Shown in pieces: positions 1-63,791 of a stretch of 64,000 nt of DNA. How positions within the stretch are numbered: the stretch's first letter is position 1; each line of letters begins with the position of its first letter. Source of the DNA: Octopus sinensis (lineage: Eukaryota); NCBI RefSeq assembly GCF_006345805.1, contig NC_043007.1, forward strand, positions 34,596,001 to 34,660,000, written 5' to 3'. The translations under genes were made by a program, and so were the position numbers. The notes beneath the pieces were generated by a model. It was given only the letters and a program-made list of their open reading frames with translations, had not been told where the DNA came from and ran no database searches.

Positions 1-445
1 TTTGCTATCAGAAGCCGTTAAAGGGTGGGTTAGGAATGCCTTGGCTGTTGATGCGCAAACATGCGCTGAGGTTGAGGCATCTTTGGCTCTACCTGGATGG
101 TGAAAGGTTGAGTTAGAGAAAAGGTGTCTGTCAGAATGCGAGTTTCGAAAAAGATGGAAGCGTGTGGCACGATTGTTGGGCGTGAAAGACACTACATGAA
201 CACGCTATGAGTCAGCTACCAAGGTTTCAGTGGAAAAATAGGGCTCGTGGGGTCGGCAATCCTGTTTTTTCTGCATCATGCGTCCTTTTCGTGTTTTTTT
301 TTTTTTTGTTAATGTGTATCATTCGATTTTCGATTTCATTGTAATTTTTAACCATCATTTAATGTTTTATATCATAGTTTTAACATGACCCCAATCATGT
401 TGTACAGTTCCCCTCTATGTTGGCCCCTTGTGGGTAATAAAGAAA
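1..445 (+). mobile_element. 3' remnant of a Tx1/L1-clade LINE (end of ORF2 with internal deletion, 3' UTR and tail)
   Basis: 1-108 translates CYQKPLKGGLGMPWLLMRKHALRLRHLW, homologous to ORF2 at about 6975 and 12180. It then jumps to the ORF2 C-terminus (ELEKR..FRKRWKRV) and ends in cccctctatgttggccccttgtgggtaataaagaaa. Confidence 0.85.
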
Positions 446-2111
446 TCAGAACCTGATCTTAAGCTGTCGCTTATTCATCGATACTTCAGAAAACTGTTTA
501 TTGTGAGTTGCTTATTTGTTGATTGTTGAATTTATTGTTGTGGAACGTTTTGGTGTACGGCTTTTGGTTGTTGTCTGTGTTGAGACGGACAGGGAGAAAA
601 TGGACTGCCCCTCCCTAACGGGAGGGATGGCCAGACAAAGGTTGTTTGAAAGTTTGTCAGAACTGTCGACGTCCGAAGAGGAGCTGGAAAGGGTAGTGAA
701 GAAAATGGATGAAAGACTAGGTAATACATATGCAGGAGTGACGAAGAAGAAGTCGGGAGAAAAGGAGATAAACTTGGTCAAGCTGCCAGGCTTCCAGGAA
801 TTTATGGAAAAGGAAGACGGTGAAGTCGAACTGTCACCACCAACAAAACGTGGTGAGTGGTTCGATCGCAGGACCGTCAAGTATCGAGTGTATGCAAACG
901 GAAAGAAAAGAATAGAAATAGTAAGCATGGAAATTATTGAAGAAGCGCTAAAACAAACAGAGGAAGAAATTGTATATTTGACAAGAGGCATGGAATACGG
1001 TACGGTAACGGTTCAATTTAGGAGCGAGAGCGTCGCAAGAAAAATGGCAGCTAAAACAGTGAAAACGGATAAGGTATACCTGCTACCTTCGTACTTGAAC
1101 AGGAAAACCACGCGAATCAGGGTGGAGGGAATACCCCCACACCTAGAAGGCCAATATATAGCAGCAGCTGTAATTAAAGGTAATGAAGAAGAGGTGGATA
1201 TCCTCCATGCCACCATAAAATATGAAGGCTGGAGGGGTGCTACCCTGGATATGAACGTACAGGCGGAGACCGAAACGCTGGAAAGGTTAACGGAAAGCAT
1301 AAGGATGGGAAACATCATCATGAGAGTGTGGGTGGAGGGCAGAGCCCCGCGCTGTTATAAGTGTGGCCTGAGAGGCCACATAAGAGACAACTGCCCTCCC
1401 CTACCAAAGGAAAGTGTGACGGAACCCCAAAGAGAGGAAGAGACTAAGGAGGAAGAACGGAACCAAACAGAAAAGGTAACAACAGAAGAAGAGGAGTCCA
1501 GCAAGAGTGGGAAGAAGGAAGGAAAAAAAGAAAGAGAAAATTAAACAGTACGGAACCCCAATCCACCCCAACACCACCCGCACCATCTGAGTCCCACCCT
1601 TCCCCTGCAGACAGTGAACCCACTCGCTCCCCACCAACAAGAAAACAGAAAAAAGATACACACAGCCAAGACACTAAAAAATAACCCAGGCCCAACGTTT
1701 TATGCATTGCAGGGAAGGAGAAGATAAAAAAGACAATGATAGACTACCAATGGTGTGGTAAGGGACGGAGTAGATACGCAGTAATTGCAAAGGAACAAGT
1801 AGACGAGTTTATAGAAAGGTGCGAAAGTGGGGACTGGGAAATATGTAAAGTGAAAATGGTTGAAGAGATGATGATGGAATTGGAAGAGGAGTTCGAGAGA
1901 AGGATAGAGATGGAGGTATATTATATTGGGACTGAGCATGGGGTATTTGTTTGGGATTGACGACTGAAGGACAGGTAAGTGATGCTAGCGGATGGGGCCG
2001 TTAGCATCGCTTTCATCTATCATTTTCATAATCCATTTATCCATATCTATGTATCTGTGACGTTTTGTGTCCCCAATGTTTGTGCTGTCCTTTCTGTGTA
2101 GCCCTTATGGT
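446..2111 (+). mobile_element. ORF1-only (HAL1-like) non-autonomous Tx1-type element, family A copy 1
   Basis: Homologous along its length to 18532-20190. ORF1 is followed by a short UTR and tail with no EN/RT. The tail is cut at gcccttatggt. Confidence 0.8.
600..1960 (+). pseudogene. Family A ORF1 (gag-like: putative RRM region, one CCHC knuckle, acidic/Pro linker, C-terminal domain)
   Basis: TYAGV motif and CYKCGLRGHIRDNC knuckle. ORFs 516-1544 and 1736-1960 join into one frame after one indel near 1497 and one stop, by comparison with copy 2. Confidence 0.8.
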
Positions 2112-2859
2112 CCCGTGTTGGTCATTAGTGACTGGCCCGGCTTATTCCCTTGTTTGCTGGTGATAGGTAGTGAGTGGTTCCCGCCTGGGGACGTTAATAT
2201 AGAGTTTGTGACTCTCTGTGACTCTTTTATAGAGCCAGGGGGTAGGTATCTGATTTGTCGTCTGGAATTTAGGTGAGACTGGGGGTCCTGGTTGATTCCC
2301 GCGTGGGGGTTGCCGGATCCTTTTGAGCCAGTGTGGAGGGGCCTGTGAGTTAGGAACCCGGGCGGCGGTGTTATTGAATAGAGCCCTTCACGGGCTGTGG
2401 ATGGGCGATTGGCCGGCTCTTATAATCAGGCGGTTGCCTGGTTGCAGGATCTCCATCTTTTTTGGGGAGCCATAGGGATGGGCGCCCTCTGATATTGATG
2501 GTCTAGCCGGTTGTAGTGAATGGGAAATTTGTCTGTATCCTCCATATTTGCCCTCATTGTAGATTTAACGCCTCACACGCCGGTTGAGGTTTCCTTAATA
2601 GGACTACTGTCATAGGGTAGCTCGTTCTTGAGCACTGCTTTAGGTCTGGGGTGGATACACTCACAGGCCCCGTTTAGTCTAGACGTGTCCCCTGGGATAT
2701 TCCTAGGGGAAATAGTTCTCGGGTGGGGCCGCTTGCTGTTTGTCTTCGGATTCGAGTGGGTGGCCGTAGGGTCTTTAGGGTTAGGTTGGTAGTTTAGCTT
2801 GCCTCTCTCGATGAGGCTGGTAATGCGCCTCCTTTAAGTTTTACTTTATCGCTTCGGTC

Positions 2860-4514
2860 ATGGTCCCCAGGAAAATGCCGCCAAGAATAGTGATGAACAA
2901 AAACATTTTTTCAGCTGAAAAAATGTTCGATGAAAAAATGTCCAACGGAGGTTTACCCCCAAAAGAAAATGTAGTAGATTCGTCTACCAAATTGAAAATT
3001 GTCGAAGGCTCGCCTGTTGAAAAAACTAAAGATGCCGAAGTTTCGCCTGCGGGAAAAGCTGAAGCTGACGAAGGTTCGCCTGCTGGAAAAACAGCTAATG
3101 TTGCTGAAGCGGAAAAAAGTATAAAAACAGGTAAAGTTGCTGAAAGTTCACCTTCTGATGGAGCAACCAAAGGAATTGAAGGTTCGTCTTCCAAAGGAAA
3201 AGAGAAGACATACAATTTCGCAGCTGCTGCAGGAAGGAAAATGGAAGAGATCAAGATGGAGGAAGTAGATTATGAGAATTACCAGAAAATGTTCACAAAG
3301 GAGGGGAACAATGTGAAAGCAACCCTCCCACAAATAATAAGAGAAGAAACGCTAAAAAGAGTCGTAATTTACAAGTCTTACTTAACAAAAGAGAAAAAAA
3401 TCGAGAAAATATCAAAGGACCAAGCAGAAGTGTCTGCAGTCGGTATGGACCGACATAGATTATGTAACTTGGGGGGGAAAAAAGTACGCCACTATCGAGG
3501 TGTACTTTAGAGACGAGGAAATGGCAAAGAAACATTCCTTGACCCCAATCAAAACAAGCGAGGTAATTCTTCTACCCTCCTATTTGGGGAGGTGAACAGC
3601 CAAAATAAGGGTCGAGGAAGTACCACCAGAAATTGAGGTGAAGTGGTTGCTCCCAGCATTATTAATGGGGCTGGAGAAGAAGATAAGAGTGGTGAATATC
3701 ACGAAGATAAAAAGAGAAAATTGGAGAGACCAGACTCTGCATGTAATAATACAGGCAACCCCAGAAACGATGGAAGAAGTCCCAGAGAACATCCAATTCG
3801 ACGAGGAAATCAACTTGCGGGTGGTAGTGGAAGGGCGAAAGCCTCGATACTACGAATGTGGCGAAAAGGGACACATTCGTATGGAATGCCCTACCCGGAA
3901 AAAAGTGGAAGAAGAAAAAACGACAGAAGAAGAGGAGAAGATGGAAGAAAAGCCAAAGGAGGACGAAAATGCCTACACAACGGTGAGGCCAAAGAAAAAC
4001 CCAAAGAGGAAAAACATTGATACTAACCCACCCAACCCAGACACACAAAAAGAAATCAAACATACAGGGGGGGAAATCTACCCCACCCCCACATAAAGAG
4101 AAAAAAGAGAAGACCCCCAACCCAACACAAGACACCCCCACTCTCCAGCAACTCCCTCCCCTCCCAAACTCCTCCCCAGGTTCCCCCATATCATACTCCC
4201 CGATCTCCTCCCCATCACCACCACAAAGCCCCCAAAAAGGGGGAAAAATAATAGAGTTCGAGACAGTATACATTTCTATAAACAATGCAAACGACAGACT
4301 AACTAAATATCTGGACAATGTCCCAACGGCACACAAGATCAACACACATAGGGTACTCCCCAAGAATGTCGAGGTTTTCAAGATTGACAGAATGAACTAT
4401 AATATAATAAGAGAGGAGTACCCGAAGGACATTAAGGGTCCGCGACTCGACTTACACGAGTCATTATTCAAAGCGGACTTCCCCCTCACGACCACCAGAG
4501 CAGGAAAAAACTGA
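2860..4514 (+). pseudogene. Family B ORF1, frameshifted
   Basis: YNFAAAAG motif, LLPSYLGR.TAKIRVE and VVVEGRKPR(Y)YECGEKGHIRMEC match the family A and C ORF1s. Pro-rich linker and C-terminal domain follow. Confidence 0.8.
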
Positions 4515-4525
4515 TAAGGTAAGTA

Positions 4526-7500
4526 ATGTCTCGCATTTGTGTAGGGTGTTTAAATGTGCGTGGCCTGATGACGAGCTGGAAGCAAGGGCGCCTCCTAAAT
4601 GACATCAGGTCACGGGATTTAGATGTTGCTGCCACAGAAACCCGGTTAAAGGGGCCAAGAGATCTGCTCCCGTTGTTCGACGGCTACGAGGGAATTATCT
4701 CTCCGAACCCGGCGGGCAGCGGAAGCGGGGTGTTGGTCCTGGTTAAAAAGAAACGGGTTCCTGGGAAAAAGTTGATTTTTGCAGATCCAGAAGGTGGGCT
4801 GGTTGTCGTTGAGTTGACGTTCAGCAGTCGTAAGACAATCAGGCTGGTTGCGGTTTACGCACCCTCCGGTAACGGGAAAAGTGATTATTTTCGGAATCTG
4901 GAAAAGTTTCTGAGTACATCGAACCCTGTAGTAATGTTAGGTGACTTCAACACAATCTGCGATGCGCGGGTAGACTGTGAAGGCTCGCAAACGAATAGGA
5001 AAGGAAACGCTGGCTTCCTGGATCTACTAAGACGTTTTGAGCTGGTAGATCCATATAGACTGGAACATCCGGACGCTCCATCGTGGACATGGTCAAACAG
5101 CGACGGATCGTCAAGGTCATACATAGACAGGATATTAATTAGGAAGGTAGATAAGAACCTAGTTAAGAGTCCACAACTCCACAGTCAGCTACAGTGACCA
5201 CAAGATGGTCACCTGTAGGCTAGACGTAGATAAGATAGAGGTCCTGGTTACTGGAAACTTAATACGTCCCTTTTGGCGATTAAGGAGTACAGGGACAGGA
5301 TTAGGTTAATGATCCAGAGGGCCATGACCGGCTCCATTTTTAACAACAAATAGTGGTATGCCCTCAAGCGAGCCATAAAATATGAGTCCATTAGGTATAG
5401 TACAAATCTTGTAGCTAGAGAGGCTAGGAAGGCAACTACACTAGTTAAGGACTTAGAGGAAGCAATGCGAACTGGCAATGCAGACCAGGTGACGGTCAAG
5501 AGACTGGTTCTTAACCAGCACCTCGAAGCCAAACACATGGGTAGCATTGTCAGGGCTAGACAACGTACAATGGGGAGCGAAGGAATCAAGGCTGCAGGAT
5601 GGGCCCGAGTCGTGGAAGCCCAACGTGGCAACGATGCTACAATTCTCTGGCGAACCAACAGGGTAAGTTGACAGACGAGCCCGAGGAGATGTGTCAAGCT
5701 TTTCAGGACCACTTCGCACAGCTTTTTGTGGGGAGCGGCGGACCGGATAGGGGGAGGGCCTTACGGACCTCCTCGACGGGCTGCCGCGCCTCTCGGAGCG
5801 GGACGCGAAGTGTAGTGAGGAGCCGATCACACCTGAGGAGGTAATGGAAGCCATGGCGGACTGCGGTGCGGGTAAGGCGCCGGGACTGGATGGTCTACCC
5901 TACGAGCTTTATAAAAGTATGCCGGACTTGTTCGGGGACTTACTGACGAACTTCTACGCAAACTGGCAGCAGAATGGGTTTATTCCCAGATTTGTGCGCC
6001 GGGGAGTGGTGACGCTAATCAGGAAGGACCAGAGCAAGGGGGATGTAATAGATAATTTCAGGCCCATCACTCTGCTTAACGCAGAGCTGAAGATTTTGGC
6101 CAAAGTGTTATCGAACAGATTGGCGCGTGTCCCGAATGGACTGATTGGGAAAGCGCAAACGTGCGCCGTACCAGGCAGAGCCATTCAAGATAATCTCCAT
6201 CTTATTAGATACACGCTAGAGGGAATAAATAATGATCCCGGCAAGGGAGGGGCAGTGGTCCATTTAGACCAGTCAAAAGCTTTCGATAGGGTCGACCATC
6301 ACTACCTGGTGTCCGTTCTGGCTCAGTTCGGCCTTGGCTTCCTCAGGTGGATCATAGAAATGTATGACAACGTCGACTCGGTAGTTCGGGTGAACGGCTT
6401 TCTTTCTAAGCCGTTCAAAGTCAAACGCTCGGTCCGCCAGGGATGTCCGCTCTCCCCGCTTTTGTATGTAGTGGCTCTTGAGCCGCTGCTGCGAAAACTG
6501 AGCGGCATCCCGAGGCAACCAGGACGTGATATGTCGGTTTCGGCGTACGCGGATGACATCACTATCATCGTGACTGAAGTGGACCACCTACGGAAAGTAG
6601 GCAAGGCCATAGAGGTTTACGAGACGGTGAAAAGTCGGTCGGCTTGCAACTCGGCACCTGGAGAGGCAAGTCGATGCCTCCAGACAGCGTCGTGGGACGT
6701 TGGACGGAGGGCCCGATTAAGTTGCTCGGGGTTTGGTTCGGTCCAGACTTCCAAATAGAGAACTGGAGCGAGGTATCGAGCAAGGTGGCTGCAATAGTCA
6801 AGGTTTGGTCTTGGCGGTGGTTATCCTTGAAAGGTAGGACGGAGGTAGCCAATGTGTTTATCGCATCGGTGATCACCTACCGCCTTGCCCGGATTCGTGG
6901 TTGAGCAAGTTGGAGAGACAGCTCTTTCGCTTCTTGTGGAAGGGCTCGAAACAGCTTGTGAGACGCTCTGTCTGTTGTCAAAAACCGTTACAGGGTGGAC
7001 TAGGGATGCCGTGGCTAATGATGCGCAGAAATGCGCTGAGGCTAAGGCACCATCTGGGTAGTGAACGGGTGTGGTCTCCGCTGGCGAAACAGATGTTCCC
7101 TAGGTTCACCAGTTTCGGTGGCCGGGAGGACTGGTATAATCGCAGATCGAAGTTGGGTACGTGGTATACGGAGTGTCGCAAGGCACTCCGACTATTCCGT
7201 CGCTCGGGTAATGCCTGCGGCAGTGGTTCTACCGCTGTGTTTTATAGAGGCCGGTAACGATGATACGCTAGGGAAACCCTAGGTTTTGACGATAATCAGC
7301 TGGCCAGTCTATTCCAACGTACATTCGGGCCGAAGACCCTGGATAATTTCCAGAAGTCTTTGGCTTGGCAGTGCTACCGAGGAGCCTTACCTGTTCGGGA
7401 CAAGCTTGCAAAGCACGGTTGCCAAGTCAGCCCGACCTGTGGAAGATGTGGGCGAGAACGGGAAACCGTCTCGCACGCGATCGTGCAGTGTCCGGAGGTG

Positions 7501-7828
7501 GCAGATACGTGGGCTTGTGCCGAACAATTGATGTCAGAGTACAGCTATCAGCCGAATCTATTGTAAAAATCAGCCCACCAGATTTCTTAACGAAAGAAGA
7601 TACGTTTTGTTTTCTCGCCGTGGTTTCAACTGCGAAACAGGTAGTATGGAAGACAAGGATGAAAGGATAATAACAGGCGACTTCATCTCTGGTTCAGGTC
7701 TGGTGGAATATTTTTAATTTCACCTGAAAAGACATATAGAACTGGAGAGAAGGAGCCTCAGTAAGAAAGTGTTTGATGAAAGATGGAAAAATGTCGTGAG
7801 TAAAAGGTCCCTCATAAATACGAGATAG
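4526..7828 (+). pseudogene. Family B ORF2: APE endonuclease, reverse transcriptase, C-terminal CCHC; frameshifted
   Basis: LNVRG, GDFN, SYIDR, SDH, PGYWKLN, KAPGLDG, FRPITLLN, LDQSKAFDRV, QGCPLSP, YADD, CGRC..ETVSHAIVQC. Confidence 0.93.
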
Positions 7829-8047
7829 GACGGAGAAAAAAAAAAGAAAAAAAAGCATAAGACCAAGTGTTGTGGCGGGGTTCGTGGGATCCGTAGACCC
7901 GCCCCACTCCATTTGTAAAAATTGTCCAATGTATATGTACTATCATTCGAAACCGTATAACTATCATCCAAATTTTTATCGATCCCAAAATGCATCATAA
8001 TTGTAAAATCATTCGTGATTGTTCTGTCCCCCTCTATGTTCGCCTTT

Positions 8048-16300: not shown

Positions 16301-18476
16301 CAGAATGGGAGAATTCCCAGTTCTGTAAGCGGGGAGTGGTGACGCTAATCCAGAAAGACCCGAGCAAGGGGGATAACATTAGTAACTACAGGCCCATAAC
16401 TCTACTTAATGTAGAGTTAAAGATTTTGGCCAAGGTGTTGGCAAAAAGGTTGACGGTTGTCGTGGAGAAACTTGTAGGGAGAGCACAGACATGTGCAATT
16501 CCAGGCAGGTCGATCCAGGACAACCTTCACCTTATACGCTACACCTTAGATAGGGTGGGTAAATTAGCCGGCAAAGGCGGGGTAATGGTCCATTTAGACC
16601 AAAGTAAAGCCTTCGATAGGGTAGACCATGGGTACCTGGCGACGGTCCTCGAAGCGGCTGGGCTGGGCCCTGAATTTCGCGGGTGGATCTCCGCTATGTA
16701 TAGCGGCATCAAGTCCACCGTCCAGATAAACGGTTACCTAACGGAACCGTTTTCGATCGAGTGTTCAGTGCGTCAGGGGTGCCCCTTGTCACCACTTTTG
16801 TACGTATTGGCTCTTGAGCCACTGCTGCGAAAGTTGGAGAGGCTGGGAGTAGTAACTCGGATGAAATCGGAGGTGGGAGGACGGTTACTGCTTATGCGGA
16901 TGACGTCACCTCATCGTGTCCAAAGAGGCCCAACTACCCTGTAGAGGAGGCTATCAGAGGATACGAGGCGGTGAGCAAAGCAAGGACAAATCGGTTGGCT
17001 TGCGCCTCGGCACCTGGAGGAGCAAGTCGATATCGTCCAGTGTCGTGGGACACTGGACGGATGGCCCTGTTAAGTTGCTGGGAGTTTGGTTTGGGCCAGA
17101 CTCCCAAACGGAGAAGAACTGGAGTGAGGTGACAAGCAAGGTGGAAGCCATAGTACGGACCTGGTCCGGAAGGTTTCTGTCCTTGAAAGGAAAGGCGGAG
17201 GTGGTGCAGATGTTCATTGCATCTGTAATCACCTACCGCTGACCGTTGTCCCTTGCCCCGATTCATGGCTTAACAAGTTGGAGCGAATCCTTTTCCGCTT
17301 TTTTGTGGAAAGGAGGAAGGCACTTGTGAGGCGCTCCGTTTGCTGCCAAGAACCGTTAAGGGTGGGTTAGGGATGCCTTGGTTGATGATGCGCAGACATG
17401 CGTTGAGGCTAAGGCATCTCTGGCACCACCTGGAAGGTGATAAGGTGTGGAGTCCGCTGGCAGGGGGATTTTTCCCGAGACCGGCCTCCTTAGTGAATTT
17501 TAAACCCGGTTACATCAAAAGATGGAAACTGACTCCATGGCAAAAGGAGTGCCGACAGGCACTCACGCTGATCCACAAGGCGGGCAAGGCCGGCTGCGGA
17601 AATACCACCTCGGTATTTTATAGAGGGCTGGTAGAGGCAAAAAACGACGACGTCCTAGGAGGGGCTCTGGGGTTCGACGAAGACCAGCTTACCAACCTGT
17701 TTAAAAAAACTTTCAGGTCGGGGTATTTGGATAATTTCCAAAGATCCCTGGCCTGGCAGTGCTATAGGAATGCTTTACCTGTTCGCGAGAAGTTATCGCG
17801 GCACGGAGTTTCAGTGCCACCGACGTGTCCAAGGTGCGAGTTGGACGATGAAACCGTCCAGCACGCTTTTGTTCACTGTCGGAAGTTGTCCGACTTGATA
17901 AGTTACGCAGAACACGTGTTATCGCATCTGGGACGAGTACAGCTGTCGGCTGAGTCTATGATTAAGATGATACCGCCAACTGGACTCTCGAAGGAAGGTG
18001 AGGCATGTTTTCACTGCACGGTTTCAGTAGTAAAAGAATGCATGTGGAGAACAAGAATGGAAGGAGCCGCGATAGGATCCTTTGTCTCCGGCCCCGGCTT
18101 GCTCACTTACTTCAGATATCATCTGAAGAGCAAAATGGGGCTGGAAAAGAGGATCTTACCGCGGGGTGTGTATGAGAAAAGATGGAAGGAAGTAGAAAAA
18201 AAGGTGGGTGTCAGAAACCCAGCTTGACCATGGAGGAAGGAGAGGAAATAAAAGCTGCAGGGCCTCATAAATTGCCGGGGTGTAAAAACTCCAGTGAGAT
18301 TATAAGTTCATGTATTGTTGTTTGTTCTACTGGTCATGTAAAGGACATTTATGTTATAATGAATAATCCAAATGTAAATGGAAAAATTTTTAATCGAATC
18401 TCTTAAATGTTTTTTGTATGTATGTCCTGTATTTGTCCTTCTGTGTAATCGATTTTTATAATCATAATAAAGAAAT
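13306..18476 (+). mobile_element. Two-ORF Tx1/L1-clade LINE, family C copy 2 (lacks the first ~75 bp of copy 1)
   Basis: Direct repeat of 8124-13305. ORF1 about 13451-14716, ORF2 14859-18227, tail aataaagaaa ending at 18475. Confidence 0.92.
14859..18227 (+). pseudogene. Family C copy 2 ORF2 (APE-RT-CCHC), frameshifted
   Basis: Same motifs as copy 1; most indels lie at different positions. Confidence 0.92.
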
Positions 18477-18531
18477 ACCCCTCTATGTAGCCTTTTACAG
18501 GTAATAAAAATACATCGCATATCAGTTTTGT

Positions 18532-20190
18532 CCTTATTTAAGCCTAGTATTCCTCATTACTAAATCAGTGGCGAAGTCGTGAGTTAATTTTTCCTAAATT
18601 TGGTACTGCGTTACACTTTACAACTGTTTATCTGTTAATTTTGTTAAACGTTTTGTTGCTCGGTTTTTTGTTGCACGGTTGTCTGTCTGTGTTGAGACAG
18701 ACAAGGAAGAAGTGGACGGCCCCTCCCTAATGGGAGAGATGGCCAGACGAAATATATTCGAGAGTGTGTCAGATTTGTCGACTTCTGAAGAAGAGCTTGA
18801 GAAGGCAATAAAAAAGATGGACAAACAATTAGGAAACACTTACGCAGGAGTGACAAAAAAATCGGAGGAAAAAGAAACAGACTTGGCCAAATTGCCAAGC
18901 TACCAGGAATTCATTAAAAAGGACGGCGGTGAAGTGGAGTTGTCACCGCCACCAAAACGAAGAGAGTGGTATGAACGAAGGACCATCACGTACCGGGTTT
19001 ATGCCAATGGAAAACAGAAAATTGAAGTAGTCAGTATGGAATTAATAGAAGAAGCACTGAAAAGAACGGAGGAAGATATAATATTCTTGGCAAGAGACAT
19101 ATATTCCGGTACTGTGGTAGTCCAATTCAGGAACGAAAGTGTGGCAAGGAAAATGGCAGCGAGAGCGGTGAAGACAGAAAAGGTGTTCCTTCTGCCCTCA
19201 TATCCGAATAGAAAAACTACTCGGATCAGGGTGGAGGGAATACTCCCAAAGGTTGACGAAGAATGGATAGTGGCAGCCATAATCAGTGGATGTGAGGAAG
19301 AAGTAGACATCCTCCATGCTACTGTGAAGGATGAAGGTTGGAGGGGTGCAGTTCTAGAATTAAATGTGCAAGCGGAGGCTGAAACATTGGAAAAATTGAC
19401 GGAGAACATCAGAATGGGAGGTGTTATGATTTGAGTGTGGGTGGAGGGCAGAGCTCCACGCTGTTACAAGTGTGGGCTGAGAGGTCACATAAGAGCTAAC
19501 TGTCCTCCCCCATCAAAGGAAATTGATACGGAACCACAAAGAGATGTAGTGGCCGAAGAAGAGGAGCAGAAACCAACGGAGAAAGACACAACGGAAGAGG
19601 AGGAGGTTTAAAAGGAATGGGAAGAAGGCAGAAAAAGGAGGAAGAGAAGAAGGAGAAAATTAAATCGTGCTGAACCCTAATCCACCCCAACACCACCCGC
19701 ACCCTCTGAAACCCACCCGCTCCCCACCAACAAGAAAACAAAAAAAAAAGCAAACAGACAAGATACCACAAAAAAACTCTAGGCCCAATTTTTTTAGGTA
19801 TTTCAAGGAGAAATGACAAAAGAAATAATGAATGACTACCAATGGTGTGAAAAGGGCAGTAGTAGATATGCGGTAATTTCGGAAGAACGTATAGAAGAAT
19901 TCGTGGTAAAATGCGAAGACAAAAACTATGAAGTGTATAGATTGGAAATAAATGACGAGACAATAACGGAAATGGAAAAGAAATTCGAGAGGAAAATAGA
20001 GAGAAAGGTGTATTACATCGAGGATAAAGTATGAAGGACAGGTAAGTGATGCTAGCGGATGGGGCCGTTAGTATCACTTTCATCTATCATTTTTCATATT
20101 TCATTTTCCATATTTATGTAATTGTGATGTTATTTGTCCCCAATGTTTGTATTGTCCCCTCTGTGTAGCCCTTTATGGGTAATAAAGAAA
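18532..20190 (+). mobile_element. ORF1-only non-autonomous Tx1-type element, family A copy 2, with 15-bp TSD
   Basis: gcatatcagttttgt at 18517-18531 and 20191-20205. ORF1 about 18730-20034 with in-frame stops. Complete tail gccctttatgggtaataaagaaa. Confidence 0.88.
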
Positions 20191-20319
20191 GCATATCAGT
20201 TTTGTGTTAGGGTCGTCGTTTAGAGATAGATTCTCTCTTTTTGTTGGGTGCTAACCATGGTAATTTTCATTGGATATGATTATAGAGAACCCACTTTTCA
20301 TCACTGTTCAAGAACCTAA

Positions 20320-21749: not shown

Positions 21750-22590
21750 TCAAACACATGGATATAGCAGTCGAATTTGCTCCAATAACTTTCCGAATAT
21801 TTCGTCCTTAAATTCATAACGCCACATGAATTCGATGAGATGGGCTTGAAGTAAATTTCGGGCTGTTCCATTTTCTCTTTTGTTCACATGCTTCCATAAA
21901 CATTCTATATGGTTGGTCGTGGCAAATGTTACCGGATCAACAAAATTTATTGAATGATTCACGGTCAAATGCTTGTATCCTAGCTGATTGAGCGTATTAT
22001 ACGAACGCCAAAGGTCGGAAATTATGGTTGTACCAGGCAATATACACTCTTGTATAATTTGTAAAAGGGTGTCCGATCTTCTACTGCCACTAAAAAACAT
22101 CTTCTGGTATCTCTTTCTAAAGCGCCGAAAACCCACTGCGTTTTAACCCGATGGCCAACATTATATTTTCTTCTAACAAACGCGCTTTCGTCTATCTGCA
22201 ATTCGGTTTGGCCCTCCGAGCTTAATGTTTTGTACAACATAATATTCTGCACATATATCACGGCAAAAATTCCTCCAATCTGTTACGGCTACATTTGCTA
22301 TATGACATTCCTGTCCTATTCCCTTTGCTAAATCTTTTGCCCAATAATATAATATATCAATTTTCTAATTGAAACCGTTTTTCTACAAGGCCTTCCACAT
22401 GACCATATCACTTCATCCGACAAATTTTTTTTTCGCCAGTTCCCTCATGCTAGCTCCACACGATATACATTTTCTGGGTATTCAAAAGTCCATGTCTCTT
22501 AAGCCAATTAATGATATCTGCTGTTGTAGCCGTGGCAATATCAATATCGCGGTGATTAATTCCTTTTAGACTTGGATATGCAGAAGCCAT
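21750..22590 (-). pseudogene. Merlin (IS1016/IS1595-like DDE) transposase 2, frameshifted
   Basis: ATG at 22590, CISC..WSC..C Zn ribbon, QIDES, RKYNVG, WVFGALER, IISDLWRSY, VNHSINFVDP, TTNHIECLW. Confidence 0.88.
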
Positions 22591-22617
22591 ATTGAAATTT
22601 TTTCGCACGTGTTGATA

Positions 22618-23433
22618 TCAAAGTGAAGAACTTTCAAAGTGAAGAATTTTCAAACTTTGAATTACAATCTCTCTATCGTCTGTGTGCACCGACGCGTTTG
22701 TCGGATCAACAAAGTTTTCACTGTGGTTGATGCGGAAGTGGGTATAGCCGAGATTTCCAAGAGAGTTATACGCAGCCCAAGAATCGCTATATACTACGGA
22801 CCCTTGGCGTATATATCGGGTAATTAAGGGGATCAGTGTGGCGGCATCTCGCCTTTCCTCTTCACCACACTCAGATGAAAGAGGTATCAAAACTTTTTTT
22901 TTGCCTATTTGCTCTATCCCACCGAAAAGCCAGATAGTTTTTGTGAGTCTTCCACGATTGTTTTTTCTTCTTACAATAACTGTTTCATCGATCTCCACTT
23001 CAAATCCTGGTCCACCGATTTGGTCCTGGTAATTCTGACAAACCTCGGAGCAGAAGGATCGCCAATCAATTGAGGTCGGATACGAAATGTTCAAATTTTC
23101 CACGACTAATGCGTGCGACCAACAGTCTGTGAGGAAGTAATTCACAAATAAGATTTTACAGGGTGGTAGCTGACTCAGCTCCAAAAATGTGTTGCTGTAT
23201 AGGGACATTGAATATCCACATTGCGTTGGCCTTTGCCTTCGACGGCGAACAGTCCTTCCACATCGGAAGATGTTTGTATTTTCGCGCAATGTACATGGTA
23301 AATTGCATCTAGGGCAGTCAACTGTGCTGGGATTGATATTATGTTTTCGAAAGAAATCTAATGCTTCAATGTCATTAGTAAATCGGCGAATCCCATCCTG
23401 TAATGTTAATTCACATGAATTGCAAAGTGCCAT
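22618..23433 (-). pseudogene. Merlin transposase 1, C-terminally truncated
   Basis: CPRC..FRC..C, EIDET, RRKNNRGR, WLFGGIE, YSDSWAAY, INHSENFVDP. Homology stops at VHT, before the catalytic Glu. Confidence 0.88.
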
Positions 23434-23647
23434 TCTCTATCATACAACTTAATGCTTGTGTATCTACGACTGAAATGAATAAGAACTTGTTGGTACCAAG
23501 GAGTGGGAAATCCTCCACACCAGAAGATGGGATGAGTAAACACTGGTCAATGAAAGGTCAGTCTTTTGTCTAAGAACAGTTGTTTACAAGACGATTGTTG
23601 GTACCAAGTTCTATTCAAGTCCAGGCCCCTAAAGACAGTTGGTTCCT

Positions 23648-28377: not shown

Positions 28378-28385
28378 GAGCAATA

Positions 28386-28834
28386 TTGACCCATCAGGGT
28401 GGAATTCAAAGAATTGCCACCAGTAGTGGATTTAGTAGAAATCGAACCACTAATGAAATATTACTAAAAAGTAAATAAGTATGTCAAATCGACAGGGAAA
28501 AAGAAAAGAAAAAAGAAAAAGGAATAAGAAAGAGTAAGCGTTTTGTTATGTTTAATAATATCGGAAAATAGAAGAACAGTTTTAAAGAACATATAACGGT
28601 TCAAATAATTGTAATGGTAGACGATAATTAAGTGTTAGTTAAATACATGATAAAAACGGACAGTTTAAAAAGATTAATGGTAATGCGTGTGATGAGGGGC
28701 GCATGCAGTCATTCATAACCCCATTGTTGTATAATCATCTCATCATATTCGTTCTATGTATTGTCCCCCCTGTGGTGTCCTGTCTGTCCCTGTTTGTCCC
28801 CCTCTATGTTGGGCCCTTGTGGCTAATAAAGAAA
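28386..28834 (+). mobile_element. 5'-truncated Tx1-type LINE (3' UTR and tail only)
   Basis: Ends tgtttgtccccctctatgttgggcccttgtggctaataaagaaa. Confidence 0.7.
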
Positions 28835-28950
28835 CCGATCGTTACAAGTATTGATATTCGCTTCTATACAAAGACGATCGGACAAATAATTTTTAACAGA
28901 CACTTACTGATTTCAAAACAAATTGAGCATTTAATAAGACAAACACACAT

Positions 28951-29710
28951 TCACAATTATACAATTATATATATTTCTTTACTACCCACAAGGGGCTAAA
29001 CATAGAGGGGACAAACAAGGACAGACAAACGGATTAAGTCGATTACATCGACCCCAGTGCGAAACAGGTACTTTATTTATCGACACCGAAAGGATGAAAG
29101 GCAAAGTCAACCTCGGCGGAATTTGAACCCAGAACTCACAATTATACAATTATATATATTTCTTTACTACCCACAAGGGGCTAAACATAGAGGGGACAAA
29201 CAAGGACAGACAAACGGATTAAGTCGATTACATCGACCCCAGTGCGAAACTGGTACTTTATTTATCGACACCGAAAGGATGAAAGGCAAAGTCGACCTCG
29301 GCGGAATTTGAACTCAGAACTCACAATTATACAATTATATATATTTCTTTACTACCCACAAGGGGCTAAACATAGAGGGGACAAACAAGGACAGACAAAG
29401 GGATTAAGGCGATTACATCGACCCCAGTGCGAAACTGGTACTTTATTTATCGACACCGAAAGGATGAAAGGCAAAGTCAACCTCGGCGGAATTTGAACTC
29501 AGAACTCACAATTATACAATTATATATATTTCTTTACTACCCACAAGGGGCTAAACATAGAGGGGACAAACAAGGACAGACAAAGGGATTAAGTCGATTA
29601 CATCGACCCCAGTGCGAAACTGGTACTTTATTTATCGACACCGAAAGGATGAAAGGCAAAGTCGACCTCGGCGGAATTTGAACTCAGAACTCACAATTAT
29701 ACAATTATAT
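28951..29710 (-). repeat. Four tandem 185-bp units of 5'-truncated SINE family 1 plus 20-bp flank
   Basis: Units start at 28951, 29136, 29321 and 29506. tcacaattatacaattatat occurs a fifth time at 29691. Confidence 0.92.
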
Positions 29711-30447: not shown

Positions 30448-30682
30448 CAGTTTCTATTACATTGTGTGGTATCTTAAGTAATTGGTCGACGCATACATTG
30501 TGTGTGAAACTGAGTGGATGGAGATGGCGTGGAAGCGTGTCGGATGGGTTGTACTCGTAATTCCAAGGTTCGACTTTTTGTCACACACCACGTCTTATTT
30601 ATTCCGCCTGAAAAATGCATTGCAGTTGAAAGTGACTGTAGCTTTCTCAGCCATGTCTGTTCAATGAACCAGGTATTTCTTA

Positions 30683-30913
30683 TTTCTTTACTACCCACAA
30701 GGGGCTAAACACAGAGGGGACAAACAAGGACAGACAAACGGATTAAGTCGATTACATCGACCCCAGTGCGTAACTGGTACTTAATTTATCGACCTCGAAA
30801 GGATGAAAGGCAAAGTCGACCTCGGCGGAATTTGAACTCAGAACGTAGCGGCAGACGAATTACCGTTAAGGATTTCGCCCGGCGTGCTAACGTTTCTGCC
30901 AGCTCGCCGCCTT
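30683..30913 (-). mobile_element. Full-length SINE family 1 with TSD
   Basis: Head ggcggcgagctggcagaaacgttagc. TSD gaaccaggtatttct at 30666 and 30916. Confidence 0.9.
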
Positions 30914-38410: not shown

Positions 38411-38593
38411 ATGAAAGGCAAAGTCGACCTCGGCGGAGTTCAAATTCCGCCGAGGTCTACTTTGCCTTTCATCCTTTCGGGGTCGATAAATAAAGTACCA
38501 GTTTCGCATTGGGGGTCGATGTAATCGACTTAATCCGTTTGTCTGTCCTTGTTTGTCCCCTCTGTGTTTAGCCCCTTGTGGGCAATAAAGAAA
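38411..38593 (+). mobile_element. SINE family 1 with fold-back 5' end
   Basis: 38411-38437 is the reverse complement of 38446-38472. TSD atatatctttt. Confidence 0.8.
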
Positions 38594-39024
38594 TATATAT
38601 ATCTTTTATTTCTTTCAGTCATTTGACTGCGGCCATGCTGCAGCACTATATTGACGGATTTATTCTAACAAATCAATTGCAGTGCTCTTTTTTTTTAAAG
38701 TCTAGAACTTCTTTTCGTGATCTCTTTACGGAAATGCAAAGCAAATGACGCCGGTTGCCAAGTAGTTGTGGTGACGTACACAAGCACACAAACACACACA
38801 TATTCGTTGCTATTATGAAAAAAGGTCTAAGTCCGAAACGTTGTTTTTTCAGAAAACTAAAAAATAATTTCACCATTCCATAGCAAAACCGTTGTACTAC
38901 ACTTTGACAAGTTTTTATATCTATGATCTAAAGTAGCTAGAGATCCGGCTATTGCAAGCAAAAATAAATATTGAAAAAACGTATTTGGCCAAATTTGGAC
39001 ATACGATAGATTAACATAATACCA

Positions 39025-46194: not shown

Positions 46195-47061
46195 TGTATG
46201 TATGTATGTATGTATGTGCGCGCTTCCTGTGAATGAGTTTGCTTGCTGCCTCGTAAGCGGTGGCTTTCTGTGTCATTTGCTTGTAGTCTTCTTTTTCTAC
46301 ATTATTATTTTTCGAATTGTTTTGTTGAGTGAAAGTCTGCTCAAATTTCCTTCCTGTACTGTTCATAAATTATAGGCTCTGTTTTTAACCTGAACCCTGT
46401 AAACTAAATCTCAATTATATAGCAATACCTTATCGAAATATCGAGGAAATTATAATGTAGAAATTCAAAACGTTTACTAAAACGGATGAGCGAGCGGCCA
46501 TACCTTTTGATAAGGACAACTACAAAACCACCAACAAAACTATGATAATATAGGCTGGGAATTGATACGGTCGCTAGAATCCCTTGTGCTATCGGTTCTT
46601 TCTGACACTCGGCGCTCTGAGTTCGAATCCCGCTGAAGTCAGCTTTGCCTTTCATCGCTAAAATGAAATGCTTGTGAACTGACGGATGAGTAAGAAAGTT
46701 AAACTGGATGTATTGCAGTATTTGTTCCGCTTCTTTAAGTTCTGAGTTGAAATCCTCCGCGGTCTGCTTTTGTGATAGACTTGATCTGCCACCCGTTTTA
46801 ACGCCTCCACTTAGCACGCTGGGTACCTTTAATGGAGTCTACTGTGTTGCAAGCATTCGAGTCAGATGTCCCGATTATGGATATTTTCCTCCCTTCTTCG
46901 TTTCCACTAGCCGGTGACTCTGAGAAGAGTAAAATACATGAGCGCTGTCTTTTCCTCCGTGATTAAAATATCTTCTCCATTGTAGGCACAAGGCCAGAAA
47001 TTTTGATGGAACATCCTTGTCAATTAAATCGACCCCAATGCTCAGCTGGTGCTTATTTTAC

Positions 47062-48137
47062 CAAAAATATTAACAATGCATGGAATCTTCCTCTCTAAGA
47101 GTGACACTGATAGGCTGTACTTGCCCAGAAGAAAGGGTGGGAGAGACTTGATCAGTTGCCAGGGTTGTATCGAAACAGAGGAAAACAGATTAGTGGGGTA
47201 TATAAAAAATACGGTGGAACCATTGTTGAAACATGTGAAGAAGTTCGACGTCATTAAAATTGATTATTGTATAAGAAAAGAAAAACTTAAAGAGGAAAAG
47301 AACACACAAAAAGAAACAGCATGAAAGGAGAAAAATGTACCGTTAGTTTGCAAGAAATACGAACGCCAAGACAGATGCAAAAGACCGGTGGCTATGGACG
47401 AGGAGAAGTGATCTGAAGATATATGTGCAGCACAAGAACAAGCATTAAGGACTAACTATGTGAAGTGCAGAATCGACAACACTATCAACATCGACAAATG
47501 CAGAATGTGTGCTGAGAGGGGTGAAACGTTATGGCACATAATTAGTGAATGCTCGAAATTGGCACAAAGCGAATACAAAAGACATGACAATGTGACAAGA
47601 ATAATCTACTGGGAGTTCTGTGGAAACCACGGCCTACAAATAGCAAAGACGTGGTACGAGCAAACTCCAGAAGGAGTCACCGAGAACGAAAATTGCAAAC
47701 TCCTGTGGGATGCAATGATTCAGTGCGATTACTTGATCAGACATCGGAAATCGGACATTGTTGTGGTGAATAAATGATAATCGACATAGCACGTCCCGGT
47801 CACAACAGGATCGAAGAGAAAGAACAAAAACTGAACAACTATGATGATTTGAAGTGAGAAATACGAAGGCTGTAGTCAATGAAGAGAGTAGACATGATAC
47901 CAAAAGTAATTGATGCACTCAACTACAAACATGGCTCAAAAAGATTGGTATATATATAAAAGAACACCTACAAAAATCAGCATTGCTTGGAACAGCAAGA
48001 ATTCTTCGTCGGGTTCTTGTAGCATGACCAGTAAACAAGTGTCACCTTAGTCTGTTGGCTGTAGACAGCTGACACTTTCCATCATACCCAGCAAAATAAG
48101 CGGCGAGTTTCCATCAACTAATAATAATAATAATAAT
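47062..48137 (+). mobile_element. 5'-truncated R4/Dong-clade LINE (CCHC plus restriction-like endonuclease)
   Basis: RLYLPRRKGGR, AAQEQALRT, CRMC..ETLWHIISEC, RHD, LLWD, DIVV, IIDIA. Ends in (TAA)n. Confidence 0.88.
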
Positions 48138-48500
48138 CCTTTCAACAATAGACACAAGGCCTAAAATTTGCGGGGAGGGGGATTAACCGATTACAGCGAC
48201 CCCAGTGCGTAACTGGTACCTATTTCATCGACCCCGAAAGGATGAAAGGCAAAGGCAACCTCGGTGGAAATTGAACCTCAGAATGTAGCAGCAGACGAAA
48301 TACCTATTTCTTTACTACCCACAAGGGGCTAAACACAGAGGGGACAAACAAGGACAGACAAACGGATTAAGTCGATTACATCGACCCCAGTGCGTAACTG
48401 GTACTTATTTCATCGACCCCGAAAGGATGAAAGGCAGAGTCGACCTCGGTGGAATTTGAACTCGGAACGTAGCGTGCTAACGATTCTGCCAGCTCGCCAC
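48138..48500 (-). mobile_element. Dimeric SINE family 1 (first monomer Tx1-like tail, second monomer alternative tail)
   Basis: Two tandem bodies; junction gacgaaatacctatttcttta. Confidence 0.8.
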
Positions 48501-52662: not shown

Positions 52663-53048
52663 GTCGGCGACCAGGCAGAATCGTTAGCACGCCGGGCGAA
52701 ATGCTTAGCGGTATTTCGTCCGCCGTTACGTTGTGAGTTCAAATTCCGCAGAGGTCGACTTGGCCTTTCATCCTTTCGGAGTCGATAAATTAAGTACCAG
52801 TTACGCACTGGGGTCGATGTAATCGATTTAATACCTATGTATGTCCTTGTTTGTCCCCTTTGTGTTTAGCCCCTTGTGGGTAATAAAGAAATAGGTATTT
52901 CGTCTGCTGTTACGTTCTGAGTTCAAATTCCGCCGAGGTCGACTTTGCCGCTCATCCTCTCAGGGTCGATTAAATAAGTACCAGTCAATCACTGTCCTTG
53001 TTTGGCCCCCTATGTTTAGCACCCTGTAGGCAATAAAGAAAGAAATAT
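52663..53048 (+). mobile_element. Dimeric SINE family 1
   Basis: Head, body, tail gccccttgtgggtaataaagaaata, then ggtatttcgtc and a second body and tail. Confidence 0.85.
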
Positions 53049-54700: not shown

Positions 54701-55249
54701 ACCCCCCTCACCTGAAGCGATGTGTTATGCCTGTCGTATCTCTTTTGTACCGATTCGATTTAGGAGGTCGAAACGCGTCTAAAGTTCTCGTCAATCACTG
54801 CTGGAGTGATCTTCGCCTCCGTTCGATATATATATATATATATCGTGTTTTTGAAATAATATGTCGGAGGAGAAATTTTCTCTCACACAAAATCTACACC
54901 ACCATTCCATTCAGTGGTATATTTTCATTAGACATGATACACATAATTATTTCAATTTAATGATGTTTCAGTTTTGTATGCCAATTTATAACAGCCCAGC
55001 AAGCTTTCCGCAACATCATTAAATGTATTATTCACTATTTCCTATATATTGGAGTGACAAATTTCGTTTCGGCCAATGACAAGTCATAACCATGGCACAA
55101 GTATGCCAAAACGTGTCTGGCATTCTCGTGAAACACTTGCTGGTACGTCTAACACGTGTCTTCTTTTTTTTTTTACCCAGCATACCAGTGGAGAGGTTTT
55201 CTCTGAGACAGAAGCCACAGTATCATGCTTCTTAATATATACGTATATA

Positions 55250-55633
55250 TTTCTTTACTGTCCATAAAGGGCTAAACATAGAGGGGACAAATAAGGACAA
55301 AGGGATTAAGTCGATTACATCGACCCCAGTACGAAACTGGTACTTTATTTATCGACCCCGGCGGAATTTGAACTCACAACGTAACGACAGACGAAATACC
55401 TATTTCTTTACTACCCACAAGGGGCTAAACACAAAGAGGACAAACAAGGACAGACAAACGGATTAAGTCGATTATATCGACCCCAGTGCGTAACTGGTAC
55501 TTTATTTATCGACCCCGAAAGGATGAAAGGCAAAGTCGACCTCGGCGGAATTTGAACTCAGAACGTAACGGTAGACGAAATACGGCTACGCATTTCGCCC
55601 GGCGTGCTAACGTTTCTGCCAGCGCGCCGCCTT
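55250..55633 (-). mobile_element. Dimeric SINE family 1
   Basis: Same junction as at 48300 and 52890. Confidence 0.85.
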
Positions 55634-61200: not shown

Positions 61201-63791
61201 TCTCGCTTGTATAAAATAGACCTGTGTGTGTATGTTTGATTTTCACGTGAAAACGGCGGCGCGTCAATATTCTGAGCTCGGATACATAATAGGGTCTTCA
61301 GTTTATATTTTTTATTAAAAATAAATAATATTGCTTTATATATATGATTCACTTCTTTAAAAAGGTTTCTCAATGTCAACTTCCGATATTGACGTAGCAA
61401 CGGCGAAGTTTTCCGTTTCCATTTGCGAAACCTCTCACTCTCCATTTTAATGCTTTCATTTTAAGTTTTCATTCGCTGTTTGCAAACAACTACGATAAAT
61501 TACCGAAAAATATATTTTCAAAGTTCAAAAATTACGCTTGAACCCAAATACTTCGTTAATTTCCGTAAAAAGCTTTTATTTATTTACTTTTTGCGCGCCG
61601 CGTTCAGCTCTATGTATTTGTAGTCAGTCACATACGCACACGTGTGTTTCTGCATGTATGTTTGTATACATATATGTAAGCTGTATTTGTGAATGAACAT
61701 GAACCTAAACTTCTTCCAGAACAACGGTGATAAAATTATTTTGGAAAAAAGCGGAGGAATATTCTTTCTTGATGCTCCTGGTGGTACTGGTAAAACATTT
61801 GTCACAACATTGCTTCTCTCCAAGGTAAGGCAACAAAAAAGAATTGCAGTTGCTATAGCCTCGTCTGGCATTGCTGCCACCATTTTCCCAGGAGGACGAA
61901 CAATTCATTCTGCTTTTGAATTACCACTAAACCTGGTCACAAATGACAGTCCAATTTGTAACGTAAACAAAGGTTCAGCAGAAGTGTTGCGCCAATGCCG
62001 CCTGATCATTTGGGATGAATGCACCACGTGACATAGAGATGAAATGGAAGCTCTTGGTAAGACCTTACGGGATATAAGAGGCAACAATAAATCTATGGTA
62101 AAAGTTACATTGGTTTCATCAGGAGACTTCAGACAGACATTACCAGTGGCTGTGTGGTAAATAGCTTGGATACCCACCACATGGTTTGGGTTCATTCCCA
62201 CTGCATGGCACCTTGGGCAAATGTCTTCTACTATAGTCTCGGGCCGACCAAAGCCTTGTGAGTGGATTTGGTAGATAGAAACTGAAAGAAGCTGTCATAT
62301 AGTGTATATATATAATATATATATATTATATATATATATATATAATATATATATTTGTGTGTGTGTGTGTGTGTGTGTATGTTTGTTGGTGTGTGTGTGT
62401 GTGTGTGTGGTGTGTGTTGTGTGTGTGGTGTGTGTGTGTGTTGTGTGTTGGTCTGTTGTTTGTCCCCCCAACATCGCTTGACAACCGATGCTGGTGTATT
62501 TTCGTCCCTGTAACTTAGCGGTTCGGCAAAAGGGACAGATAGAATAAGTACTAGGCTTACAAAGAATAAGTCCTGAGGTCGATTTGCTTGACTAAAAGGC
62601 GGTGCTTCAGCATGGCCGCAGTCAAATAATTGAAACAAGTAAAAGAGTAAAAGAGTAAAAGAGTAAGAGAGTCATTCCGAGACGAACAAGATCTGATGAA
62701 ATAAAAGCATGCTTTAAGTCTTCAAATCTATAGAATAAAGTACAGAAATGTTCCTTCAATACAATACTAACGTTAGAGCTTTATTACATGGAGACCAATG
62801 TGCAGAACAGTTTTCAAAATGGCTCCTCCAATCAGGAAATGGGAAAGTGCCATTTGATGGGAATGGTGATATCAATTTGGCTCATATTGCAATTATGGTG
62901 AATTCCCCAGCTGAATTGAAGCACAGTGTATTTCCAGACTTAAGTAATAATCATGGTTCACATAAATGGTTATGTGAAAAAGCAATTCTTGCTCAAAAGA
63001 AAATGAGACAGTAGCAAGGATTAACCATGAATTAATGAATAAGATTCCAACAGTCATTAAGGAGTACAAATCAGTTGATTCAGTCCTTGATGAAAATCAA
63101 GCCGTCCATTACACAACAGAGTTCCTTAATTCTCTTGAGCCAACTGAAGGTAGGAGTCCTAATAATGCTTCTAAGAAATTTAGATCTTCCTAAATTATGC
63201 AATGGGACAAGGTTGATTGTGAAGACATTATCACTTAATGTGATACAAGCTACCATCATCACTGGATGTGCCTCTGGGGAAGAGGTTTCCATTCCAAGAA
63301 TTCTAATCAAGCCAACAGACATGCCATTTGAGTTCAAACGAACACAATTCCCAGTGCGATTTTGCTCCGCAATGTCTATTAATAAAGCTTTGAAATCTAC
63401 TGGCTTTCATTGAACTGAGCCTCGCTTTTCTCATGGTCAACTTTCTGTTGGTTGCTCCGGGGTTGGTAGTTTTGCAAGACTTATTTCTCTATGTTCCAAA
63501 TCAGAAAACAAAGAATGTTGTTTACCCAGAAGCTCTTATGTAATTTTCTTCAATATATGTGATAGAATTCATCTCCCTTCATAAAAGTGGTAAACTTTTA
63601 TTTTCGTTTATTTGTAAAATTATTTTATTTTTCATTTTTTTTATACTTGTATTATGAATTCAGAATTGATTTCCGAATTGAAGTATAAATTGAGTTTAGA
63701 ATAACAAATGTCTATACAACTTATTTTGCTTTCTTCTTGCAAAATATAAGGAATAATTTCAGCCCGAGCAACACGCTGTATGCCTCTGCTA

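Follow-up and report, generated by a model that had tools for sequence, protein, structure and literature searches.

A predicted 3' stem-loop tail shared by L1-type LINEs, ORF1-only elements and an abundant SINE in Octopus sinensis

In a 64,000-nucleotide (nt) stretch of the 2.72-Gb Octopus sinensis genome (contig NC_043007.1, positions 34,596,001 to 34,660,000; hereafter the window, numbered from its first letter), long interspersed nuclear elements (LINEs), elements that have a first open reading frame (ORF1) and lack the second (ORF2), and a tRNA-type short interspersed nuclear element (SINE) end in the same short tail, in which a small predicted stem-loop stands just before a hexamer, AATAAA or a variant of it. 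Positions 1–20190 hold a head-to-tail array on the + strand. It opens with the 3' end of an L1/Tx1-type LINE of family A (1–446, +), 5'-truncated and internally deleted, which matches the intact copy L242 and whose end point is shared by 30 of 30 genomic copies. The shared module at this end (409–446, +) comprises a pyrimidine/TGT tract, an apical stem (423–426 with 432–435), its loop (427–431) and the end AATAAAGAAAT, with AATAAA starting at 436. Next comes D1 (447–2110, +; 5' bound approximate), an ORF1-only element with a zinc knuckle in its ORF1 (507–1544) and a tail broken off in the 3' arm, and then a LINE of family B (2111–8046, +; 5' bound approximate) with a broken ORF1 and an ORF2 of APE, RT and zf domains. 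Two LINEs of family C follow head to tail, C1 (8047–13302, +), with the AU-rich stem GATT/AATC, and C2 (13303–18477, +), with its stem at 18451–18463. LINE B breaks off inside its own tail at about 8046, and the same 15–16 nt reappear at 18478, behind C1 and C2, in the manner of a target-site duplication (TSD). Given this duplication, the 36-bp tail fragment at 18478–18512 (+), which completes a B-type tail, probably represents the 3' end of LINE B, displaced when C1 and C2 inserted into the B tail. The array closes with a second ORF1-only element, D2 (18532–20190, +), flanked by a 15-bp TSD (18517–18531 and 20191–20205). Mixed LINE/ORF1-only arrays of this kind, spaced at about 5.3–5.7 kb, are common genome-wide (for example, G000:C9:70.50–70.52 Mb, C3:72.50–72.53 Mb and C10162).

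Beyond the array, the window contains a 5'-truncated copy of a second ORF1-only family, F (28382–28836, +), whose tail, at 28812, is the closest to that of the SINE. The SINE itself is present as a full-length copy with a young tail and a 15-bp TSD (30681–30905, −), which served as the reference copy of the analysis; as two further young-tail copies (38436–38595, +, and 52735–52893, +, the latter with a 5'-truncated SINE directly behind); as four tandem 5'-truncated units with the young tail (28967–29685, −); and as a copy with an older tail, of the same loop and an AGGC-type stem, inside the (TAA)n end of an R4/Dong-like LINE (48130–48276, −).

An initial annotation of the window, made from its letters, had proposed that one 3' module with a covarying stem unites these elements. 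All tail strings that it cited are present (423, 20168, 18490, 28812, 13275, 18451, 38557–38593 and 52855–52891), although the one at 18490 belongs to the probable displaced end of LINE B, and the likeness of LINE and SINE tails is evident, the LINE tail of the window being 90% identical to the SINE tail over 39 nt. Other details of that description needed revision once genome-wide copies were compared. A four-bp stem is found in most families, but two have just three pairs; AATAAA is invariant behind the hairpin in LINEs, but 61% of 71 SINE tails have AGTAAA; and the loop, described as YTTRY, varies from 4 to 6 nt and includes CTAGT, GTTAT, CCTGGT, TCAC and GTAT. Two B tails without a hairpin, each a single copy, were dropped as counter-examples. 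In most families a basal helix is predicted, with UCU.UGU pairing to the AAUAAAGA end and the four-bp stem sitting above it on an internal loop. A histone-type stem-loop was set aside, as loop length and stem vary here, and an Rfam scan of seven loci returned U1 only. The U1 hit is a single case: a complete U1 small nuclear RNA (snRNA) gene (Rfam RF00003, 125 bits; L255:7647–7822, G000:C15 ~29,053,150–29,053,320) begins no more than 12 nt behind a family-J/C-like LINE tail, the LINE having inserted at the start of U1.

The LINEs end natively in this tail. For each of families A, C, D and F, 30 of 30 fetched copies stop at the tail, with queries that included it; with tail-free queries, the tail still ends 27 of 30 family-B copies, 30 of 30 family-H copies and 21 of 29 loci of the E lineage. 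Nearly all copies of a given family carry the tail variant particular to it, flanking sequences diverge past the tail, and TSDs begin after it. In the full-length copies L241, L242, L244, L245 and L253, TSDs of 16–18 bp enclose the tail. The suggestion that LINE tails are SINE fragments inserted at LINE ends, which the initial annotation had named as a way to overturn its proposal, was examined directly with these data and did not hold; the family-specific variants and enclosing TSDs likewise rule out the tail as a target sequence.

No run of eight or more A residues occurs in any of 251 unique tails (111 LINE, 28 D, 41 F and 71 SINE). The LINE set was drawn from 234 ORF2-end rows, from which 53 without a hexamer in range and 51 mis-anchored by an out-of-frame query were removed. 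Copies that end in poly(A), as expected of a relaxed, poly(A)-reading L1, are therefore absent from this set (0/251). Evenly spaced samples totalling 400 kb gave 36 tail matches, of which 33 were SINEs; the other three have LINE-like T-rich 3' untranslated regions (UTRs), one of them (L210) with an ORF2 end, and look like 3' UTRs of this LINE group. A non-SINE tail from the random sample has a further stem, GTCC/GGAC (L218:3344–3379, +).

The insertion signature is common to LINEs, both ORF1-only families and the SINE. Counting exact matches only, with long duplications and SINE dimers removed, we found TSDs at 11 of 111 LINE, 8 of 28 D, 14 of 41 F and 12 of 71 SINE copies, with medians of 15, 15.5, 17.5 and 14 bp, respectively; most LINE loci are too short to include the 5' end, and an apparent TSD of the F copy in the window was filtered out as a longer duplication. 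The TSD most often starts 12 nt from the hexamer (11–17 in F). When one mismatch was allowed, TSDs flanked 15 of the 29 young SINEs of full length and 4 of the 27 older copies, against 1.3% of mismatched control pairs. The family-specific bases past the tail often match the TSD start, which suggests short pairing between RNA and target at insertion.

ORF2 of these LINEs has APE, RT and zf-RVT domains (PF03372, PF00078 and PF13966), and intact frames of 1126–1140 amino acids (aa) were found. Among solved structures, its best match is human L1 ORF2p (E = 6e-69, compared with 4e-23 for R2), which places the LINEs, by ORF2 homology, in the L1 superfamily (L1/Tx1). The closest named homologue is from Argonauta hians (63%). 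No named Tx1 reference stood among the ORF2 homologue matches, so placement in Tx1 by named homologues failed; Tx1 is nonetheless the likely clade, with a sister branch of the L1 superfamily as the alternative. ORF1 of the Tx1 clade carries a CCHC zinc knuckle, and this knuckle (PF00098) was detected in three of five ORF1 pieces scanned, two above the cut-off. Many Tx1 families prefer particular target sequences (PMC4494074), and the available text of the O. vulgaris annotation lists L1-Tx1 as the sole L1-type group among recently active LINEs, with SINEs mostly unclassified.

Identical targets are shared by L244, L245 and L247 and by L253 and L254, families A and F being dispersed; such repeated sharing suggests target-specific families of Tx1 type. 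Several subfamilies recur at one and the same sequence within other repeats (L244, L245 and L247; L253 and L254; L256 with L112–L117; L344, L350 and L351). Some flanks contain hammerhead-like motifs of the kind known from Penelope elements. Family H has (ATT)n behind 30 of 30 copies. It is very young (G000:C5:65.68 Mb and genome-wide, L313–L342), with many copies at 97–99% aa identity and several ORF2 frames of 1105–1150 aa, and is probably active and microsatellite-associated.

Two classes of passenger carry the LINE tail, as the initial annotation had stated: the SINE and the ORF1-only elements, the latter in two families. Family D (~1.6 kb) lacks ORF2 in 13 loci and, like HAL1, moved as a unit, as its TSDs show, though 16 of 30 D matches share flanks and represent few events rather than independent insertions. 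In F, an ORF1-type frame runs into the tail, and the bounds of full-length F are less well defined. The zinc-knuckle ORF1s of D and F are only 29–40% identical to the sampled LINE ORF1s and to one another, which marks both as old lineages rather than recent deletions. D copies in which both flanks are shared (L154, L156–L158, L161 and 11 more) reflect either one insertion carried by a host repeat or a fixed target. A further ORF1 type (L249:739–2232 and the second long frame of L246; 58–66% identical between them, 29–40% to others) is possibly a third ORF1-only family.

The SINE is ~230 bp long and has TSDs. Inspection of its majority sequence by eye shows motifs that look like A and B boxes; no tRNA gene is called by ARAGORN in the window. 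Forty evenly chosen places, 399,900 bases in all, yielded 34 young-tail matches and 37 in which the match ends with the body, most of these carrying an older tail. The SINE covers at least 3.4% of the sampled DNA, and the counts extrapolate to about 230,000 young-tail and 250,000 body-only or older copies. Body divergence is 4.8% in young copies (n = 23), within the 2–9% range of the sampled LINE families (a range biased to best matches), and 16.6% in older ones (n = 24). Older SINEs keep the CTTGT loop in other stems (AGGC/GCCT, GGGC/GCCT and TGGC/GCCA), the younger stem being GCCC/GGGY. By median score the SINE tail is closest to that of the ORF1-only family F (78, compared with 66 for D and 60 for A), and it is a mosaic relative to the LINE families, its upstream part resembling the E lineage and its stem families A and G; in a sample made up of the best-scoring copies from chosen families, no family with an ORF2 matches the SINE tail over its whole length. 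The initial annotation spoke of having named the likely motor of the SINE; no single family can be named, and the motor is likely to be found in this LINE radiation as a whole. An R4/Dong-like LINE was rejected as donor of the older SINE tail, its end being different. In a recurrent dimer, 14 of 71 young SINEs are followed directly by a SINE that starts near position 42 (window 52893–52985, 55244–55400 and 48180–48304; L215, L218 and L229). The SINE body may resemble the Meta domain. Abundant tRNA-derived SINEs known from octopus are OK, OR1, OR2 and 'Twinkle', with which this SINE, abundant and probably of tRNA origin, may be compared.

Other features of the window lie outside this system. 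They comprise the 3' part of the abundant R4/Dong-like LINE family, with its (TAA)n end (46900–48130, +), into which SINEs inserted on the opposite strand, and broken frames that resemble, as judged by eye, an ISXO2/Merlin-type transposase (21750–23436, −) and a PIF1/Helitron-type helicase (63039–63413, +).

The tree built from ORF2 ends takes in 108 of the 111 LINE tails, and stem types are distributed along its lineages (GCCC/GGGY, GCCT/AGGT, AGCC/GGCT, ACCT/AGGT, GATT/AATC, GATC/GATC and AATT/AATT). Of 21 representatives of ORF2 lineages, chosen by clustering, 18 keep a four-pair stem, one of these representatives only in an odd register, and the stems have seven distinct inner types. None of 1,500 HKY simulations on the ORF2 tree, run at matched divergence and under the same flexible register rule, reached the observed values (type K, with a poorly placed ORF2 end, was left out); at half the rate, 0.5–0.7% reached 18, none with as many stem types. 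Held-out copies of the E lineage had a four-pair stem in 13 of 21 cases, against a shuffle mean of 4.9 (0 of 2,000 shuffles), and added the pair types TCCT/AGGA and CCTT/AAGG. A covariance model with the stem, trained on GC-rich tails, recovered five held-out C and E tails at full length (E = 0.01–0.1), whereas a sequence-only model recovered them partially (E = 0.13–1). Within the GC-rich subset, pairing was 96%, a value seen in 3 of 500 shuffles under a control that ignores relatedness, and two of five measures were not exceeded. Across the ORF2 tree, the stem changes in ways that preserve pairing; the initial annotation had claimed this, and a test for covariation, whose absence it had named as fatal, did not refute the claim.

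Several results weigh against reading the stem as a selected recognition structure. The simulation assumes even rates without indels or rate bursts, and its representatives were picked by the analyst. The four-pair rule is failed by 8 of the 21 held-out E copies; tails of types J, K and M, like the older SINE tails, escaped the stem-aware model, which also scored L260 worse. RNAalifold on a plain MAFFT alignment predicts no pairs, so the covariation signal depends on variable loop length and register. For any single tail, a four-bp stem (G–U allowed, flexible register) appears in 13–65% of composition shuffles, folding z-scores are weak (+0.6 to −3.0 in 38 representatives), and it is the pattern across families that must carry the case. 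The family-C hairpin folds at only about −1 to −5 kcal/mol, and three unique tails of that family carry a variant whose outer pair is broken. Family H (young, at least 150 copies) has three pairs, no basal helix in the predicted fold and an (ATT)n end, and one E subfamily is also limited to three pairs. The bases of the basal helix are nearly invariant, so covariation is silent on that part, which is a prediction only. Lastly, no LINE with the older SINE tails occurs among 65 matches in 1.6 Mb of collected loci, a sample biased to known families.

Taking both sides together, we favour, with a probability of roughly 0.72, the reading that a LINE radiation, two ORF1-only families and a tRNA-type SINE share a poly(A)-less module with a predicted hairpin, which ORF2 likely binds so that reverse transcription begins at one set position. 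We infer that recognition by ORF2 is stringent and directed at the hairpin shape and conserved flanks, not at the stem sequence. ORF2 would nick the target and start target-primed reverse transcription about 12 nt past the hexamer start, without poly(A), and priming would probably be aided by 2–5 nt of pairing between read-through RNA and target. Such pairing would explain the family-specific targets, the head-to-tail arrays and the SINE dimers. The passengers would have acquired their tail from this radiation of LINEs, and at least one exchange of tail has likely occurred in the SINE, AGGC/GCCT and TGGC/GCCA being older and GCCC/GGGY younger. A broader proposal, which we hold tentatively and at slightly less than even odds, is that this is an animal L1-clade lineage without any use of poly(A), in which one type of ORF2 reads shape, many LINEs, ORF1-only lineages and about half a million SINEs share the hairpin, and the SINE tail tracks successive motors.

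The hairpin might instead serve 3'-end formation, stability or pausing of the RNA, with a relaxed ORF2 guided by 3' microhomology and passengers that acquired the tail by template switching. The LINEs have AATAAA, the canonical poly(A) signal, without variation, three-pair stems are tolerated in active families, and family-specific bases stand behind the tail, all of which would fit. Yet none of the 251 copies is polyadenylated, insertion takes place at a constant position with respect to the module, and the SINE, presumably transcribed by RNA polymerase III, retains the stem even where AATAAA is lost, its older members keeping loop and pairing in a different stem; we regard this explanation as unlikely. 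Assembled contigs of four public runs cover family C, and contigs cannot show RNA ends. Less probable still is a SINE whose motor is some other LINE clade, or a lineage missing from the sample, its likeness to these LINEs being an old tail capture. The whole SINE tail is matched best by the ORF1-only family F and by no ORF2-bearing family, no LINE has the older SINE tails, and sampling was confined to the best-scoring copies of chosen families. Against that stand the TSD length and start offset, the same as in the LINEs, the age of the young SINE, within that of the sampled families (with the bias noted), and the unrelated R4/Dong-like end, in a comparison that left out CR1, L2 and RTE ends.

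Recombination or conversion in mixed arrays, together with mutational perfecting of short inverted repeats, could in principle produce shared tails and compensation without selection on structure; mixed head-to-tail arrays are indeed common and some AT-rich stems are near-palindromic. Conversion would be expected to homogenize stems rather than leave them paired but divergent in sequence, and the stem types track the ORF2 tree while dispersed SINE subfamilies show the same pattern, so that we give this idea very little weight. The free 36-bp tail at 18478 and the frequent tail-to-head junctions look at first as though LINE-end tails were SINE fragments or an insertion target. That view is scarcely credible given the family-own variants, the diverging flanks, the TSDs that start past the tail or enclose it in full-length copies, and the origin of the free fragment as the displaced end of B.

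The reading of a tail recognized by ORF2 bears on an exception to a general pattern. Tail-sharing LINE/SINE pairs are well known, with L1-clade LINEs as the main exception, and the stringent L1-clade type has already been described in maize and sorghum (PMC3472496); the animal case appears to be new. A survey (Ohshima 2012, PMC3472496; review PMC3747384) found L1-clade tails in only three SINEs, all from green plants or algae (maize/sorghum and Chlamydomonas), the maize hairpin showing covariation, and proposed stringent recognition as the ancestral state of the L1 clade. Mollusc SINE papers, as far as their available portions go, name CR1, CR1-Zenon, L2 and Nimb partners. Octopus and Tx1 are absent from the accessible text of Kojima 2018, which lists ORF1-only types, the word 'partner' from that of the O. 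vulgaris annotation, and Tx1 from the excerpts of PMC9115989 and PMC12988792. In line with the initial annotation, which knew of no description of the pairing, our literature searches found none of the octopus LINE/SINE pairing or of an animal L1-clade case; Repbase, Dfam, SINEBase, Albertin 2015 and Ohshima and Okada 1994 were outside their coverage and may hold one. Because the octopus system is animal, lacks poly(A), has intact ORF2s and offers some ten natural variants of the stem, both the proposal of ancestral stringency and the choice of RNA by an L1-type ORF2 become directly testable. It also points to the likely motor clade of an abundant SINE in a group where SINE bursts have been linked to genome reshuffling (PMC12988792). 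If the broader proposal is true, the system would add an animal data point for ancestral stringent recognition and a natural allelic series of stems for mapping RNA selection by an L1-type ORF2.

Comparison with known systems sets the octopus case between several types. Eel UnaL2/UnaSINE1 and zebrafish ZfL2-1/ZfL2-2 (Hayashi 2014, PMC4176376) likewise have a 3' stem-loop common to LINE and partner SINEs, bound there by ORF2, and a short repeat in place of poly(A); they differ in belonging to the L2 clade and in an assay-proven, strict reading of the cognate tail, whereas binding in octopus is a prediction from sequence comparison and tails may be used across families. Crocodilian SINEU with Tx1-Mar (Kojima 2015, PMC4494074) also involves a Tx1-clade LINE proposed as SINE motor and target-specific Tx1 families. 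SINEU differs in its snRNA heads and poly(A) tails, no LINE with the SINEU-1 3' terminus was found, and its link is shared targets; the octopus link is a structured tail. MetaSINEs (PMC4824008) carry a 66-bp Meta domain after the tRNA head, and in the available text neither an octopus member nor a partner LINE is given. HAL1, HeT-A and Ag-Sponge (PMC5786205) resemble D and F in having one ORF1-like protein, no ORF2 and dependence on an autonomous relative; D and F differ in the divergence of their ORF1s from the sampled LINEs and in their structured, poly(A)-less tail. The closest parallels are LINE1-1_ZM with ZmSINE2 and ZmSINE3, and L1-1_CR with SINEX-3_CR, where an L1-clade LINE shares ~45–80 nt of 3' end with tRNA SINEs, stringency is likewise inferred from sequence, and, in maize, the hairpin has compensatory changes, a variable stem and a conserved loop and flank. 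Those pairs belong to green plants or algae, and the Chlamydomonas pair ends in poly(A); the octopus system, by contrast, is animal, has no poly(A), has a different loop, and unites many LINE families with ORF1-only passengers and an estimated ~230,000 SINE copies.
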